Of a stretch of DNA of 64,000 bases, positions 5,661 to 29,189 are shown piece after piece. The notes beneath the pieces were generated by a model. The model had not been told where the DNA came from. It ran no database searches and worked only from the letters and a program-made list of their open reading frames with translations. The translations under genes were made by a program, and so were the position numbers. Source of the DNA: a phage; NCBI GenBank assembly GCA_022520065.1, contig GCA_022520065.1_3942.1; one strand, written 5' to 3'. Every line of letters begins with the position of its first letter. The stretch's first letter is position 1.

Positions 5661-7262
5661 ATGGACTTAAATGCTGTTAAGCAGAAGCGAGTGGAAGATG
5701 TTAGGAAAGTCCTAGCTGGAGAGTTGGGGCTTTCTGATGAAGTAAAAGAAATTATCAAATCATTCGGTAAAGACCCCTCTAAATTCCTTCCAACTCAAAT
5801 TCTGACTTTATTAAGATACACACCAGACCAAGTTCGCCTTATCTTTAAATTGATGACTGATAAGAACTATGTAGCCCCTCAACCGGGTTCTCAAGAGGTC
5901 TTTTTAAATACTAATGCTGACTTGGTTCTCTATGGTGGTGCTGCTGGTGCTGGTAAGACTGCCGCATTGTTAATGGACTCTTTAAGATTTATTGAAGACC
6001 CTAACTATAATGCTGTATATTTCCGTCGAAATACAACACAGTTACAAGGTGGTTTATGGCCTGCTGCAAAGAAACTATTTGGTAAGTTTGGTGGGATTCC
6101 TCACGAGCAGAAAATGACTATCACATTCCCTTCTGGGGCAACTATCAAGTTTACCTACCTAGAACTTGAAAAGCACGCTGAAGGTCATCAGGGTATTGAA
6201 TACTCAGCTATTTACTTTGACGAAGGTACACACTTCTCTGCTTCACAGATTTCATACCTACAAACCCGTCTACGTTCTGGTGCTGAAGGCGATTCATACA
6301 TGAAGATTTCCATGAACCCAGATAGAGACCACTTTATTTACGATTGGGTAGAACCATTCTTAGACGAAGAAGGTTATCCAGACCCTGAAAAGTGTGGTCG
6401 TATTCGTTGGTATGTAATGAATGATGGTGTGATGGTTTCTGATTGGGAGAGAGACAAGATTCTTGAAATGTTCCCTCTTGAGATTCCTCAAACATACACC
6501 TTCATCTCTGGTACGATTGATGATAACCCAATCCTTGACTTCTTAGAGCCTAAGTACCGTGGTAAGTTGGAAAACAACACTCCTGTAAACGTTGCAAGAC
6601 TTCGTTTCGGTAACTGGAAGGCTCGTGCAGAAGGTTCAAACTATTGGCAAAGACAATGGTGTGAAATTGTTGATTCACTCCCAGAAGATGTATTTGATGT
6701 TAGAGCATGGGACTTAGCAGCAACTTTACCATCTGAGATTAACCCTAATCCAGACTGGACAGCAGGTGTTAAGATGGGTAAATCTAAAAAAGACGGTTGC
6801 TATTATATCATTGATGTAGTAAGATTTAGAGATAGACCCTCTGGAGTCGAAACACAAATTAATTTGACTGCTGAAAGTGACGGTAAGCGAACTGGTATTT
6901 TTATCCCTCAAGACCCAGGCGCTGCTGGTAAATCCTACGCAACATCCCTCATCAGGAAACTTGCCGAGAAAGGTTATCGAGCAAGAGCCAAACCAACAAA
7001 TAAAGATAAAGTTACCCGCTTTGCGGGATTTTCTGCTGCTTCTGAAGCTGGACTTGTAAAAGTCTTGAGAGGTAGTTGGAATGAAGCTTACTTTCAAGAA
7101 CTTGAAGGCTTTTGTGGTGACGGTAAAACTAAAGATGACCAAGTGGATGCTACCAGTGATGCTTTCAACAGTCTTAACGAAGTTAAATTATTCAAGCCAC
7201 CATCAATGGGTGCTCACACAGATTTAGTGAGAGGAAACCCATATGAGGGGCTTAGACGTTGA
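5661..7262 (+). CDS. terminase large subunit
   Basis: Walker A-like LYGGAAGAGKT near N-terminus, about 534 aa, precedes portal; start set to ATG 5661 rather than track TTG 5646. Confidence 0.85.
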   Translation: MDLNAVKQKRVEDVRKVLAGELGLSDEVKEIIKSFGKDPSKFLPTQILTLLRYTPDQVRLIFKLMTDKNYVAPQPGSQEVFLNTNADLVLYGGAAGAGKTAALLMDSLRFIEDPNYNAVYFRRNTTQLQGGLWPAAKKLFGKFGGIPHEQKMTITFPSGATIKFTYLELEKHAEGHQGIEYSAIYFDEGTHFSASQISYLQTRLRSGAEGDSYMKISMNPDRDHFIYDWVEPFLDEEGYPDPEKCGRIRWYVMNDGVMVSDWERDKILEMFPLEIPQTYTFISGTIDDNPILDFLEPKYRGKLENNTPVNVARLRFGNWKARAEGSNYWQRQWCEIVDSLPEDVFDVRAWDLAATLPSEINPNPDWTAGVKMGKSKKDGCYYIIDVVRFRDRPSGVETQINLTAESDGKRTGIFIPQDPGAAGKSYATSLIRKLAEKGYRARAKPTNKDKVTRFAGFSAASEAGLVKVLRGSWNEAYFQELEGFCGDGKTKDDQVDATSDAFNSLNEVKLFKPPSMGAHTDLVRGNPYEGLRR

Positions 7263-16915: not shown

Positions 16916-24934
<8,019 letters not shown>

Positions 24935-24936
24935 TA

Positions 24937-26109
24937 ATGGCAGTAGGTGAAATTCAAATTAGTGCCTTGCCTCAAGCATCCTTACCAATTGACCTTAGTG
25001 ATATCTTCCATCTTAAGCAGGGTATTGAGGATAAGAGGTGTACTCTTGAGCAATTACTTGCTCCACACGCAAGCCTAAGAAATAACCCTCATGGTGTTAC
25101 TAAAACACAAATTGGTTTAGATAATGTTATTAATGCTCTTCAGTTAGTCGCTGCAAATAACTTATCAGATATTGTTAATGTAGCTGAGGCAAGAGCAAAT
25201 CTACAGATTATGTCTTCAGAAGAGGTTAATAACCTTGTCCAGCAACATATCAAGGACAAGAGTAACCCACACAATACAACTAAGGCACAGGTTGGTTTAA
25301 GTAATGTTCAGAACTGGACAACATCTAATCTGTATAACGAAGATGCAGATAAGTATGCTACAGCAAGAGCAGTAAATAACTTGTACAAGGCTGTTCAGGC
25401 TTCTTATCCAGTAGGTGCTATCCATCTTTCTATGAACTCTGCAAACCCTTCCACATACTTAATTTGTGGAGGTACTTGGGAGTTAGTTTCAAAAGGCAGG
25501 GCATTGGTTGGCTATGACTCTGATACAAGACCAGCAGGTTCTGTATTTGGCGCTTCAACTGTCACTTTGTCAGTTAATAACATGCCTCAGCACTCCCACT
25601 CTGTGTCTCTTAGCGGTGGTGGTCACACTCATAATGCAACTGTGTCAATTTCAGCTTTTGATTATGGGACTAAGACTACAAACTCTTTTGACTATGGGAC
25701 AAAAGCTACTAACACAACTGGTAACCATACACACAGTGTGTCAGGTAACACTAGCACCAATGGTACTCACAACCATGATGTGTATCCTAGAGAAAATGAT
25801 GGCACTGGTAATGCTGTGGCTGACTCTGATGGTGGTGGTGCAAGAAGGACATCAAGGACTTCTAGTGATGGTGCGCACTCACACAGCTTTAACGTCACAT
25901 CTGGTGCATCAGGTGACCACAGCCACACGGTTGGTATTGGTGCTCACAGTCATACAGTTGGTATTGGTTCACATACGCATAGTGGCACTGTAACAGTTTC
26001 TTCTTCTGAACATACACATAGTGGCAATACAAATAGTGTTGGTGGAGGTCAGGCAGTTAATATTGAACAGCCATCCTTCGTACTGTATGTATGGCAGAGA
26101 ACAGCTTAA
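24937..26109 (+). CDS. tail fiber protein with His-rich (HxH) C-terminal tip
   Basis: Repeated H-x-H motifs (GHTHNAT, GNHTHSVSG, GAHSHTVGIG) and FDYGTK repeats; C-terminus shared with next gene. Confidence 0.7.
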   Translation: MAVGEIQISALPQASLPIDLSDIFHLKQGIEDKRCTLEQLLAPHASLRNNPHGVTKTQIGLDNVINALQLVAANNLSDIVNVAEARANLQIMSSEEVNNLVQQHIKDKSNPHNTTKAQVGLSNVQNWTTSNLYNEDADKYATARAVNNLYKAVQASYPVGAIHLSMNSANPSTYLICGGTWELVSKGRALVGYDSDTRPAGSVFGASTVTLSVNNMPQHSHSVSLSGGGHTHNATVSISAFDYGTKTTNSFDYGTKATNTTGNHTHSVSGNTSTNGTHNHDVYPRENDGTGNAVADSDGGGARRTSRTSSDGAHSHSFNVTSGASGDHSHTVGIGAHSHTVGIGSHTHSGTVTVSSSEHTHSGNTNSVGGGQAVNIEQPSFVLYVWQRTA

Positions 26110-26119
26110 TTTCTTTACA

Positions 26120-26140
26120 GGGGCTTTATAGCCCCTTTTA
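26120..26140 (+). terminator. Rho-independent terminator after first tail fiber gene
   Basis: Hairpin ggggc-tttata-gcccc followed by tttt. Confidence 0.55.
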
Positions 26141-26155
26141 AGAGGAAAATTTATA

Positions 26156-28510
26156 ATGGCAGATTACAAATTGAGTGAGCTAAACTCAATCGACACAATC
26201 CGTTCAGATGACCTTCTTCATGTCAGAGTTAAAAAGAGACCTGAAATGCTGGGTGATGAAGACCGTCGAATGACCTATCAAGATTTCTTAGCATCTTTTA
26301 AGCTTGAAAGATTTGTTCAGATTGCTGGTAGCACTATGACGGGTGACTTAGGAATTGTTAAGCTACTTTACGGTGGCAAGGCTGTATTCGACCCCACAGG
26401 CTCTTCTGAGATTACTGTTGGTGATGTTTTAAAGACTTTTAAAATCAACGCAAACGGCCTTAAACTAACTATTGCAGACGCTTCAAGGTCGGCAACTGTT
26501 TATCATACTTTGAATAAGCCAAGCCCTAATGAACTTGGGATGAGAACTAATGAAGAGAATGACGCAAGGTATGCAAGACTAGCCGTGAATAATACCTTTA
26601 GAGGTACTCAAGCTATCCTCTCTGACAATGAAGCGCTCATTATTAAAAATATCACTCAAGGTGCTCCACTCTATCTTCGTGGTCAAGATGCAGATGGTAC
26701 TAACAGATGGTATCTAGGTAATGATAATAGGGGTACAAATAATCTTGTATTGAAGAATGTAAAGTCTGACGTTTCAATTGCTATTTTAGAGAATTTGGTG
26801 ACAGTCAACAGAACTCTTCAAATTGCTGGCCAAGTTCAGCCTTCAAGTTTTGCTAACTTAGATGCTAGGTATTTTACCCAGACAGCAGCTAATCAGAGAT
26901 TTGCGCAGTTAGCTGGCAATAATACATTTAGTGGTTCTAATATTTTCACTAATTTTGTTATTAAGAAGAATGCTAATGCTATTACTATTCAAAATGTAGA
27001 TACAACTGCGGCTTTGTATATCCAAGCAAGGAAATCAGATGGAGCTAATAAGTGGTACATTGGTAATGATGGTGATGAAAACATTGTAAACATCTATAAC
27101 TATTTAGCAAAAACACAAATCTCATTAGGTAACACCATTACCATGAGCAGAACAGTCCAAATTGGTGGTCAAGTACAACCTTCTGATTGGACTAACATTG
27201 ATTCTAGATATATTCCGGCAGCCACTTTGAGTAATCTCCCTAAACTTAATGTGTCTAATACTTTTACAAATGTGCAAACTATTGTATCTAACAACGAGGG
27301 TTTGGTATTAAGGAACTTGACACAGGGGCAGCCACTATATATCCGTGGTGTTGATACTGAGAATGTTTCTAGATGGTGGTTAGGTGTAGGTGGTCCAAAC
27401 TCTAATGTGGTAACACTTAACAACAACTATTCTGACACTAAAATCTCACTTGGTGGCTCATCAGTAATGACTAATAAGAGCTTAGCTATTACTGGTCAAG
27501 TACAACCTTCTGACTTCTCTAACTTAGATGCTAGATACTATACCCAAGCTGCCGCAAACGCAAGATATATGCTTGCAAGCATCACTGGTTCGGCTTCTGA
27601 AGCAGATGGTGGTGATGGTGTTGCATGGGATGCAAAAACAGGTCTTTATAAGGTTACTAACACCACTGGACAGTCTTCTTCACTTGTATATCACATGTTT
27701 TTAGGGACTAGTTCTACACCATCTGCACAATTAAAGTTTTCGTTTAAAAATGGTGGGATGTGGTATAGAACATCAAGAGATGCCTATGGCTTCGAAGTTA
27801 ATTGGTCTAAAGTTTACACGGAAGCACAAAAACCAACCCCTTCAGAGATTGGTGCATACACTAAAGCTGAAACTGACCAGAAAATTGCAACAGCAATTAG
27901 TGACTCTACAGACCTTAACAAAATCTATCCAGTTGGTATTGTAACGTGGTTTAACAGTAATGTTAACCCTAATACAGCACTCCCTGGTCTAACTTGGACG
28001 TACCTGAATAATGGTGTTGGTAGAACTATCAGAATCGCAGCAGCAAACGGTTCAGATGTTGCTACAACTGGTGGTTCAGATTCTGTGACATTAGCTGTTG
28101 GTAACTTACCATCACACACTCACAGTTTCTCTGCTACCACTTCATCTTTTGATTATGGTACGAAGAACACTAACAGTACTGGTGCACATACCCATTCAGT
28201 TAGTGGTACTGCTGCATCTGCTGGGCAACACGCACACAGAATTTCACAGGGTGACAACGCTAACGTTTCATCAGGTAGAGTCGCATCTTCAAACTCTGCT
28301 CAGACCCATGTTGGTTGGACTGAAAATGATGGTGTTCACACCCACTCAGTTAGTGGTACTGCTGCATCTGCTGGTGGACATGCTCACTCTGTAGGTATTG
28401 GTGCTCATAGCCACACAGTTAGTGGTAACACTGGTGGTACAGGTTCTGGTTCAGCATTTAGTGTTACTAACCAGTTCTACAAGTTAATGGCTTGGGTAAG
28501 AACTGCTTAA
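26156..28510 (+). CDS. long tail fiber protein with internal repeats and His-rich C-terminal tip
   Basis: 784 aa; three internal repeats containing GQVQPS...NLDARY; C-terminal FDYGTKNTNSTGAHTHSVSG module homologous to previous gene. Confidence 0.75.
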   Translation: MADYKLSELNSIDTIRSDDLLHVRVKKRPEMLGDEDRRMTYQDFLASFKLERFVQIAGSTMTGDLGIVKLLYGGKAVFDPTGSSEITVGDVLKTFKINANGLKLTIADASRSATVYHTLNKPSPNELGMRTNEENDARYARLAVNNTFRGTQAILSDNEALIIKNITQGAPLYLRGQDADGTNRWYLGNDNRGTNNLVLKNVKSDVSIAILENLVTVNRTLQIAGQVQPSSFANLDARYFTQTAANQRFAQLAGNNTFSGSNIFTNFVIKKNANAITIQNVDTTAALYIQARKSDGANKWYIGNDGDENIVNIYNYLAKTQISLGNTITMSRTVQIGGQVQPSDWTNIDSRYIPAATLSNLPKLNVSNTFTNVQTIVSNNEGLVLRNLTQGQPLYIRGVDTENVSRWWLGVGGPNSNVVTLNNNYSDTKISLGGSSVMTNKSLAITGQVQPSDFSNLDARYYTQAAANARYMLASITGSASEADGGDGVAWDAKTGLYKVTNTTGQSSSLVYHMFLGTSSTPSAQLKFSFKNGGMWYRTSRDAYGFEVNWSKVYTEAQKPTPSEIGAYTKAETDQKIATAISDSTDLNKIYPVGIVTWFNSNVNPNTALPGLTWTYLNNGVGRTIRIAAANGSDVATTGGSDSVTLAVGNLPSHTHSFSATTSSFDYGTKNTNSTGAHTHSVSGTAASAGQHAHRISQGDNANVSSGRVASSNSAQTHVGWTENDGVHTHSVSGTAASAGGHAHSVGIGAHSHTVSGNTGGTGSGSAFSVTNQFYKLMAWVRTA

Positions 28511-28589: not shown

Positions 28590-28787
28590 ATGCCTACAAT
28601 CCTAGCAATTCTTCTAAAAAATCTAGGTAGCTTCTTCTGGAAACTCATTTTATCCCTTCTAAGTGAATACATGATTGAGAAAGTGTTCTTTAAGCTTGCA
28701 AGATACCTTGCGAGTAAAACAGACACACCTATTGATGATGAGTTCGTAGATAACTTAGAAAAAGCTTTTAAGGGGGAGAATAAATGA
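28590..28787 (+). CDS. hypothetical small protein with hydrophobic N-terminus
   Basis: 65 aa, downstream of promoter 28518-28546. Confidence 0.4.
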   Translation: MPTILAILLKNLGSFFWKLILSLLSEYMIEKVFFKLARYLASKTDTPIDDEFVDNLEKAFKGENK

Positions 28788-29155
28788 AGTGGCTAGAGGA
28801 AGCTTTTAAAAATAATATTGGTGCAATTGTAGTTGGTATTTTTAGTGTTATTGGGATGTATACCACCATGCAAGTTTCGGATGGTAAGCAAGAAGTGTCT
28901 GTCACAACAAAGTTACAGCAGCTAGATAATTACAGCAAAGCTAATTACTCAGCTATTCGTGATTTACAGTCTGACATGAGACTGATTCAGCTAGGGATGG
29001 AGAACCAGAAAGTTCAGTTAGAGAATGTTAAGGGCGAGAACGCAAAACTTACTAAAACCCTTGATAAATTCTCTGACAGCGTGAACAATCTGGCTCAATC
29101 AGTATCAGCCTTGCAAGCTATTACTGAAAAGAACACAAAGAATACTGAAAAATAA
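28784..29155 (+). CDS. hypothetical membrane-anchored coiled-coil protein
   Basis: N-terminal TM helix IGAIVVGIFSVIGMYTT then coiled coil; spanin- or holin-like architecture is speculative. Confidence 0.45.
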   Translation: MKWLEEAFKNNIGAIVVGIFSVIGMYTTMQVSDGKQEVSVTTKLQQLDNYSKANYSAIRDLQSDMRLIQLGMENQKVQLENVKGENAKLTKTLDKFSDSVNNLAQSVSALQAITEKNTKNTEK

Positions 29156-29160
29156 AATTT

Positions 29161-29189
29161 AAGGCTCCTTTTTTACGGGAGCCTTTTTT
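29161..29189 (+). terminator. Terminator at the convergence of plus-strand structural genes and minus-strand thyA
   Basis: Hairpin aaggctcc...ggagcctt followed by tttttt; sits between convergent genes. Confidence 0.6.

Follow-up and report, generated by a model that had tools for sequence, protein, structure and literature searches.

Tail fibre genes and their locus

The stretch of phage DNA analysed here (64,000 nucleotides, referred to as the window) belongs to a member of the genus Felixounavirus and shares 99.9% DNA identity with phages ULIM8 and ULIM3. It carries a short tail fibre (STF) gene at positions 24937-26109 (390 aa) and a long tail fibre (LTF) gene at 26156-28510 (784 aa), both on the plus strand, as are all other features listed below. 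The STF is orthologous to Bas63 gp26, Felix O1 ORF76, and VpaE1 gp74, and the LTF to Bas63 gp27, Felix O1 ORF77, and VpaE1 gp75. The STF protein matched phrog_2097 (tail fiber; E = 7e-138) and is 76% identical to Bas63 gp26 and 77% identical to the STF of Felix O1. The LTF protein matched phrog_4277 over its full length (E = 0) and shares 68% identity, equal length, and equal Pfam architecture with Bas63 gp27. Over 200 Felixounavirus records list these genes as tail fibres, and both are syntenic with those for Bas63 gp26 and gp27, which are visible by cryo-EM. The original assignment of the two ORFs to tail fibres, made from the sequence alone, is thus supported, and both ORFs are genuine genes at these coordinates.

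Synteny was examined by setting the ORFs of the window against the corresponding annotated regions in Bas63, Felix O1, warpig, SUSP1, Mordin, and others. Upstream of the STF lie the genes for baseplate wedge 2 (Baseplate_J; 22303-23772), baseplate wedge 1 (23769-24632), and a 100-aa LTF-platform protein (24632-24934). The two wedge genes were recognized by Pfam and PHROG matches; they take the roles of Bas63 gp23 and gp24, the sites of fibre attachment (PMC12609058). The platform protein is the orthologue of Bas63 gp25 (position matching bas63_0025; phrog_4141, a family with no assigned function, E = 1e-61), for which a T4 gp9-like role is known from cryo-EM (PMC12609058). The order wedge 2, wedge 1, platform, STF, LTF is kept in Bas63, Felix O1, Suspvirus, and Mooglevirus. 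On the 3' side of the LTF, two small genes are followed by convergent thyA/frd, as is proper to the STF/LTF locus of felixounaviruses. Among the genes neighbouring the fibres, none is homologous to the T4 gp38 or lambda Tfa chaperones; with no chaperone gene of this type adjacent, folding must differ from that in T4. The two genes very probably encode an unexceptional STF/LTF pair of a Felix O1-like myovirus infecting E. coli, both fibres bearing T4 gp37-type tips.

Domain organization of the two fibres

The N-terminal part of the STF (aa 1-143; 24937-25365) comprises a baseplate-binding domain, the role of which is known from the cryo-EM structure of Bas63 (PMC12609058), and a helix-and-turn region. 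This part is 95% identical to that of Bas63, shows conservation of 0.87-0.99 across 14 phages, and contains two NPHxxTKxQxGLxNVxN motifs (aa 50-66 and 110-126). It is followed by a collar domain (aa 144-215; 25366-25581), whose best match is the T4 gp10/gp11/gp12-type fold. The descending needle strand (aa 216-280; 25582-25776) includes a duplicated FDYGTK unit and HxH motifs at 219, 230, 264, and 278; it aligns with HxH 883, 915, and 929 of T4 gp37, motif 230 being extra. The head segment, the presumed receptor contact (aa 281-313; 25777-25875), is located between HxH 929 and 966 in the same alignment. The ascending needle strand together with the C-terminal strand (aa 314-390; 25876-26109) has HxH motifs at 314, 328, 337, 346, and 359, aligns with T4 sites 966, 980, 989, and 998 (motif 359 being extra), and ends in VWQRTA. 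Repeated needle codons give rise to spurious overlapping ORFs in other frames, such as those at 25508-25993 and 28098-28394.

The LTF begins with a baseplate-binding region and a first beta domain (aa 1-140; 26156-26575), which show conservation of 0.85-0.96 and 96% identity to Bas63. A threefold internal repeat had been noted in this protein, and this observation was confirmed. Namely, an HMM built from the repeats detected exactly three copies: repeat 1 (aa 142-249; 26579-26902; E = 1e-43), repeat 2 (aa 258-361; 26927-27238; E = 7e-38), and repeat 3 (aa 364-472; 27245-27571; E = 2e-45). Neither a fourth or fifth copy nor any copy within aa 1-140 was found with this HMM. The motif GQVQPS occurs at aa 225, 338, and 447, and N[LI]D[AS]RY at aa 234, 347, and 456. 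These units of about 110 aa share pairwise identities of 37-47% (z = 22-40 against shuffled sequences), and Pfam family PF20744 (gp37_trimer) matched the LTF in three stretches, that of repeat 1 included, with an E-value of 2.5e-62, above the curated threshold. For Bas63, five beta domains were counted in the LTF structure (PMC12609058).

In a comparison with the PDB, the repeat profile matched the pyramid domain of T7 gp17 (4A0T, 7BOZ; E = 7e-8); the corresponding part of the T7 protein is residues 368-436 (4A0T/4A0U). Mu gp49 (5YVQ) also matched the repeat (E = 4e-3). Unlike in the T7, Mu, and P1 fibres, the pyramid-type unit is present here as a tandem triplicate in the shaft and does not form the distal receptor-binding end. 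Scanning T4 gp34, gp35, and gp37 with the repeat HMM revealed nothing significant (best domain E = 0.28), and the Gp34 Pfam domain was absent from the LTF in the Pfam search. A resemblance of the Bas63 LTF to the rod-type beta-helix of T4 gp34 was proposed on structural grounds (PMC12609058).

The repeats are followed by a gp37_C-type domain (aa 486-585; 27611-27910; PF12604, E = 8e-20), which is common to Mu/P1/P2-type fibres. Aa 480-581 matched PDB 8JU3 (E = 4e-21), and the fibres of P1, P2, and L-413C match this stretch. The collar domain (aa 586-650; 27911-28105) aligns with that of the STF and is 98% identical to Bas63; its Pfam Gp10_C score of 26.0 bits is slightly below the 27-bit cut-off. 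Next come the descending needle strand (aa 651-694; 28106-28237; HxH 654, 678, and 692, aligned with T4 sites 883, 915, and 929), the head segment (aa 695-727; 28238-28336), and the ascending needle strand with the C-terminus (aa 728-784; 28337-28510). The last of these has HxH motifs at 728, 742, and 751, aligned with T4 sites 966, 980, and 989 (site 998 is deleted), shares 92% identity with Bas63, and ends in AWVRTA.

The tip module, its heads and its putative metal sites

The two fibres have a C-terminal module of about 190 aa in common (BLASTP of STF aa 157-341 against LTF aa 591-755: 38% identity, E = 7e-28); a tblastn search within the window did not reveal a third copy. The FDYGTK-type motif reads FDYGTKATNTTGNHTHSVSG in the STF and FDYGTKNTNSTGAHTHSVSG in the LTF. 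The sequence-only reading had described this shared histidine-rich module, its motifs, and the endings VWQRTA and AWVRTA, all of which are present. HxH motifs are strongly overrepresented, with nine in the STF (1.4 expected) and six in the LTF (0.3 expected), counts that were reached in none of 20000 residue shuffles.

The same reading drew an analogy to the T4 gp37 tip, which proved to be real homology. Both tips match the T4 gp37 structure 2XGF: STF aa 145-362 correspond to chain positions 17-228 (E = 1e-29), and LTF aa 648-763 to positions 93-218 (E = 4e-14). As in T4 gp37-type tips, a collar domain of the gp10/gp11/gp12 fold lies N-terminal to the needle. The alignment is site for site with the iron ligands. 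All seven T4 HxH motifs (883/915/929/966/980/989/998) have a counterpart in the STF (219/264/278/314/328/337/346), and the first six have one in the LTF (654/678/692/728/742/751). On sequence evidence, both tips are homologous to the T4 gp37 receptor-binding tip, with which they share the collar, both needle strands, the position of the head, the C-terminal strand, and the FDYGTK-TN-TG-HTH motif. They differ in that tip identity is only 37-45%, in the number of HxH sites (seven in T4), and in that T4 gp37 ends a long fibre made of four proteins, while the tips studied here each sit on a fibre made of one protein (390 aa in the STF, 784 aa in the LTF). An AF2 model whose input alignment comprised just these two tips had a pLDDT of 33, too low for use.

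The architecture, the homology to T4, and the variability of the tips are already known for this genus from VpaE1 (2015), Sf14, and Bas63 (both 2025). Homology of the C-termini of VpaE1 gp74 and gp75 to T4 gp37 was reported in 2015 (PMC4690856). A cryo-EM study of Bas63 (Escherichia phage JohannRWettstein) resolved a collar, an HxH needle, and a head tip in both fibres (PMC12609058). Bas63 resembles the phage examined here in genus, gene order, LTF length (784 aa), Pfam architecture, and T4 gp37-like tips. It differs in having seven HxH motifs in the STF instead of nine (sites 264 and 278 are missing), in its head segments (only 21-30% identical), and in an HHxH motif of the LTF, noted by the Bas63 authors, where the LTF of this phage has QHAH. 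ORF76 of Felix O1, annotated as 'putative tail fiber protein GP37', has nine HxH motifs, as does the STF here.

The head is the least conserved segment of the STF (conservation 0.24-0.36, with a minimum spanning aa 281-320; 21% identity to Bas63). In the LTF, the minimum of 0.21 is also in the head (aa 701-720; 30% identity to Bas63). DNA identity falls into troughs at both heads, with conserved sequence on either side. Bas63 and this phage share one pattern of variability, which is concentrated in the heads and in the bodies of the LTF repeats. Head types segregate by host genus, and the STF head type of this phage was found in E. coli phages only. Its STF and LTF heads are unrelated to each other. 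Felixounaviruses target LPS (PMC8594841); LPS is the only receptor known, and use of an OmpC-type receptor, as in T4, is unreported for relatives (PMC8594841, PMC4690856). The hypervariable heads between the HxH runs most likely make the receptor contact, presumably with a structure of the LPS core. Since the two heads differ, the two fibres probably recognize different structures.

It could be argued that the STF serves chiefly as a brace or trigger bound to the sheath, in a role like that of T4 gp12, and that the LTF alone sets the host range. In the Bas63 virion, the STF runs alongside the sheath and places its head between domains of the latter (PMC12609058), the BASEL study described what short fibres do in this genus as unexplored (PMC8594841), and the gp10/gp11/gp12-type collar of the STF fits such a role. 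We regard this as rather unlikely. No other part of the STF varies as much as its head, and the head type follows the host genus, which is what diversifying selection on a receptor contact should produce. Even if the STF acted at a second step, as gp12 does, it would still be a receptor-binding protein.

Each HxH layer in the T4 gp37 tip holds one Fe (restated in PMC12609058 and PMC11705849). Conservation of the motifs in homologous fibres, on which the sequence-only reading had made its case depend, was evident: among 68 diverse homologues, the HxH histidines were the most conserved columns, the core histidines exceeding 90%. The tips are probably iron-binding. A structural histidine zipper with another metal (e.g. 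Zn or Ni), or with none, appears clearly unlikely. T4 gp12 uses a related histidine site for Zn, which is a precedent for another metal, and not every site seems essential, STF motif 230/232 being conserved in about half and 278/280 in about 70% of the homologues. These points are outweighed by the one-to-one alignment with the iron ligands of T4 within a full-length match to 2XGF and by the conservation of the core histidines. The Bas63 authors likewise read these motifs as iron-binding (PMC12609058).

Origin of the tips and probable mode of action

Duplication or exchange of a receptor-binding tip had been proposed for the two genes. This proposal is right in kind, but a recent event in this phage is not borne out. 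Recent duplication or gene conversion, with both fibres binding one receptor, would account for tips of 38-43% protein identity with identical short motifs, and such an exchange is clear in the Felix O1 lineage, whose STF and LTF genes are 75-81% identical over about 270 nt of distal needle and head sequence. In the window, however, the longest DNA match between the two genes is 39 nt at 82%, and the heads are unrelated. In a tree across four genera, the tips group by fibre type and not by genus. The C-termini are also type-specific: in the 14-phage panel, all STFs terminate in VWQRTA or a close variant of it, and all LTFs in MAWVRTA. The STF tip is as near to T4 gp37 (45% identity) as to the LTF of its own phage (41%). 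Recent duplication is thus highly improbable. With no shared DNA longer than 39 nt and type-specific clades across genera, the sequences identify the two tips as old paralogues, not as recent copies. That their similarity is a compositional artefact of low-complexity sequence rich in Gly, Ser, Thr, and His has a negligible chance of being true. The collar, both needle strands, and the C-terminal strand align collinearly with a composition-adjusted E-value of 7e-28, Pfam and PDB profiles match independently, and the HxH counts are beyond those of any shuffle, despite the biased needle composition with its repeated codons and spurious frames.

In Felix O1, STF and LTF have almost the same head. 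This suggests a scenario that we offer tentatively and for which no description was found in the literature consulted. In the E. coli clade, unrelated heads on paralogous needles would give the virion two LPS specificities, while in the Salmonella Felix O1 clade the head segment copied between STF and LTF would give one. Head copying might then act as a switch between dual- and single-receptor recognition.

A probable mode of action can be outlined from the homology, domain order, motif conservation, and variability revealed in this analysis, combined with literature on the orthologues, from which the trimeric state, the anchoring sites, and the hairpin are taken. Each fibre would be a homotrimer. 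The conserved N-termini would anchor the STF on wedge protein 2 and the LTF on the 100-aa platform protein encoded directly upstream. The LTF shaft would consist of beta domains, three of them T7 gp17 pyramid-type repeats followed by the Mu/P1/P2-type gp37_C domain. In the tip, each chain would leave the collar, run down the needle, form the small head, and return to the collar. HxH motifs from three chains would provide six histidines, most likely around one Fe(II) on the fibre axis, and nine such sites in the STF and six in the LTF would stiffen the needle. The head between both HxH runs would contact the receptor, most likely an LPS core structure.

The HxH arrays bear on the idea of phage fibres as a bound-iron pool. 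If every HxH were occupied, a virion with six trimers of each fibre would hold about 90 metal ions along the fibre axes (6 x 9 + 6 x 6), compared with 42 in the long fibres of T4, a roughly twofold difference. Felix O1-type phages serve in diagnostics and biocontrol of Salmonella and E. coli. Specificity would reside in two head cassettes of about 33 aa each, between conserved collar and HxH sequences, which makes these cassettes targets for host-range re-engineering.

Fibre genes and their surroundings

The examined region is 99.9% identical to the Escherichia phages vB_EcoM_ULIM8 and ULIM3, and nearly all of the 241 records that match it belong to Felixounavirus. Felixounavirus fibre sequences also occur in GU169904.1, MG065664.1, and MG065668.1, which are named Staphylococcus phage SA1 and Campylobacter phages A132 and A126; these records are probably mislabelled or mixed assemblies. 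Two fibre genes are present, as the sequence-only reading had stated, both on the plus strand: ORF A (24937-26109; 390 aa), encoding the short tail fibre (STF), and ORF B (26156-28510; 784 aa), encoding the long one (LTF). They follow the genes for wedge 2 (22303-23772; Baseplate_J), wedge 1 (23769-24632), and a 100-aa protein (24632-24934). This order, which extends downstream of ORF B to two small genes and convergent thyA and frd, is common to Escherichia phage Bas63, Felix O1, Suspvirus, and Mooglevirus. In the cryo-EM study of Bas63, gp23, gp24, gp26, and gp27 were assigned as wedge 2, wedge 1, STF, and LTF, respectively, and gp25 as a T4 gp9-like LTF platform (PMC12609058). Identity to these Bas63 fibres is 76% for ORF A (gp26) and 68% for ORF B (gp27); ORF B and gp27 also agree in length and Pfam architecture.

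ORF B is followed by two small genes of 65 and 123 aa (28590-29155 region), a strong terminator-like hairpin (29161-29185), and the convergent genes thyA and frd. A homologue of the 123-aa ORF is labelled holin in some relatives; comparison with PHROGs gave no function for either small ORF. The same comparison revealed no fibre chaperone homologue among the genes next to the fibre pair, and Mu-type chaperone genes were reported absent for Sf14 (2025). The window also carries 26 tRNA genes in one plus-strand block (69-5216). Phage VpaE1 possesses 22, and a large tRNA set was called a feature of the group (PMC4690856).

Tip modules and histidine motifs

The C-terminal modules of the two fibres are homologous (STF aa 157-341 and LTF aa 591-755; 38% identity, E 7e-28), and no third copy was found elsewhere in the window by translated search. 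The motifs reported earlier, such as FDYGTK-x-TN-x-TG-x-HTHSVSG, and the C-termini VWQRTA and AWVRTA were recovered in the two proteins, as was the richness in HxH: nine motifs in ORF A and six in ORF B versus 1.4 and 0.3 expected, counts that none of 20000 shuffles reached. Long ORFs in other frames overlap the fibre genes at 25508-25993 (+), 28098-28394 (+), and 27925-28119 (-). These are most likely by-products of repetitive His/Gly/Thr codon runs and show no sign of being genes.

The proposed likeness to T4 gp37 was borne out by sequence, with the crystallised T4 tip (PDB 2XGF) being matched by STF aa 145-362 (E 1e-29) and LTF aa 648-763 (E 4e-14). In a joint alignment, T4 HxH motifs 883, 915, 929, 966, 980, 989, and 998 correspond to STF motifs 219, 264, 278, 314, 328, 337, and 346, and the first six of them to LTF motifs 654, 678, 692, 728, 742, and 751. 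In comparison with T4 gp37, the STF has two additional motifs, one in the descending strand (230) and one in the ascending strand (359); this pairing suggests that the needle may be lengthened at its collar end. The LTF, in contrast, has no counterpart of T4 motif 998, which fits the shorter LTF needle noted for Bas63 (PMC12609058).

Searching 5.8 billion proteins with the STF tip yielded 782 homologues. As expected from the earlier claim, HxH histidines make up most of the invariant or nearly invariant columns when 68 diverse homologues are aligned. The 120 homologues that were listed have between 5 and 11 HxH motifs, with modes of 7 and 9, so that nine motifs are not unusual; the Felix O1 STF likewise has nine. 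The LTFs of phages ESh22 and SPJ41 contain just four each. In the T4 tip (2XGF) each HxH layer holds a single Fe(II), as PMC12609058 and PMC11705849 also state, and by homology the STF and LTF tips are putative metal-binding structures. A monomer model of the tip had a pLDDT of 70, its head being of low confidence; fold searches, made with monomers only, returned no convincing match to 2XGF.

Long-fibre shaft and the N-terminal part of the short fibre

The triplicated repeat noted earlier in ORF B is a unit of about 110 aa at aa 142-249, 258-361, and 364-472, the copies being 37-47% identical to one another (z 22-40; HMM E 1e-38 to 1e-45). The repeat HMM detected no additional copy in the ORF B sequence. 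The repeats correspond to Pfam family PF20744 (three stretches, E 2.5e-62), and their profile matches the pyramid domain of T7 gp17 (4A0T, 4A0U, 7BOZ; E about 1e-7) and Mu gp49 (5YVQ; E 4e-3). They were not detectable in T4 gp34, gp35, and gp37 by repeat HMM search; the gp34-like description of the Bas63 LTF shaft refers to structural resemblance (PMC12609058). LTF aa 480-581 form a gp37_C domain common to the fibres of Mu, P1, and P2 (8JU3; E 4e-21).

In some members of the genus (Sl26, KEP1, and SPJ41) the LTF is longer (812-848 aa), and its collar lies about 58 aa further along, implying an extra segment ahead of the tip. Phage TH10 is 98-100% identical to the window upstream and across the N-terminal part of the STF. 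Its identity declines to 90-95% within the STF tip and to 56-74% over the repeat region of the LTF (26600-27700), and is again 98-100% beyond the LTF. This profile points to recombination breakpoints within the LTF shaft.

In the N-terminal part of the STF, the motif NPHxxTKxQxGLxNVxN occurs twice, at 25084-25134 (aa 50-66) and 25264-25314 (aa 110-126). The two copies are probably equivalent to the triple helix-and-turn elements that the Bas63 study reports in its STF (PMC12609058).

Tip paralogy and head copying

Duplication or exchange of a receptor-binding tip had been proposed to explain the shared module. Tips from 14 Ounavirinae fibre loci split into an STF clade and an LTF clade that differ in their C-terminal signatures, and T4 gp37 is nearer to the former. 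The STF tip shares 41% identity with that of its own LTF and 45% with that of T4, and the longest STF/LTF tip DNA match in the window phage is 39 nt. Because of these type-specific clades, identities, and the short maximum match, the paralogy of the two tips is old: the type of event proposed holds, but it did not take place recently in the window phage.

Conservation is lowest in the heads (0.24-0.36 at STF aa 281-320 and 0.21 at LTF aa 701-720). Variability extends to the bodies of the LTF repeats, in contrast to the conserved collars, linkers, and HxH strands. DNA identity to relatives falls sharply in the head and repeat-body cassettes and returns to 90-100% on either side, the same pattern as reported for Bas63 (PMC12609058).

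In each of Felix O1, Sl26, and JH2, a distal needle and head segment of about 270 nt is common to the STF and LTF genes of the one phage (75-81% DNA identity, E 1e-50 to 1e-72; 4322-4591 and 6781-7050 in the Felix O1 locus), and the two head peptides are nearly identical. This points to head transfer between STF and LTF genes in the Felix O1 lineage. Such a shared segment is absent from the window phage, as judged by DNA comparison of its two fibre genes. The Felix O1-type head was found in 71 records, essentially all of Salmonella phages and usually in at least two places per record; the window STF head (25684-25953 region) was found in 26, all of E. coli phages and in one place each. Head type thus tracks host genus. 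On this sequence evidence, head copying between fibres is best placed in the Salmonella lineage and not in that of the window phage.

Overall, the earlier observation was confirmed, its interpretation is supported, and the architecture of the fibre pair was already known. For VpaE1 (2015), both fibre proteins were reported to have conserved N-termini and variable C-termini, the latter homologous to the T4 gp37 adhesin (PMC4690856), and cryo-EM of Sf14 (2025) and Bas63 (2025; PMC12609058) revealed two fibres with T4-like, hypervariable tips carrying HxH motifs. The known receptor of Felixounaviruses is LPS, not proteins (PMC8594841). Slightly beyond the papers cited here are the site-by-site HxH map for the window phage (nine STF and six LTF motifs), the spread of HxH counts across the family, the relationship of the LTF repeat to the T7 gp17 pyramid, and the presence of unrelated heads in the window phage versus one head common to both fibres in the Felix O1 lineage.
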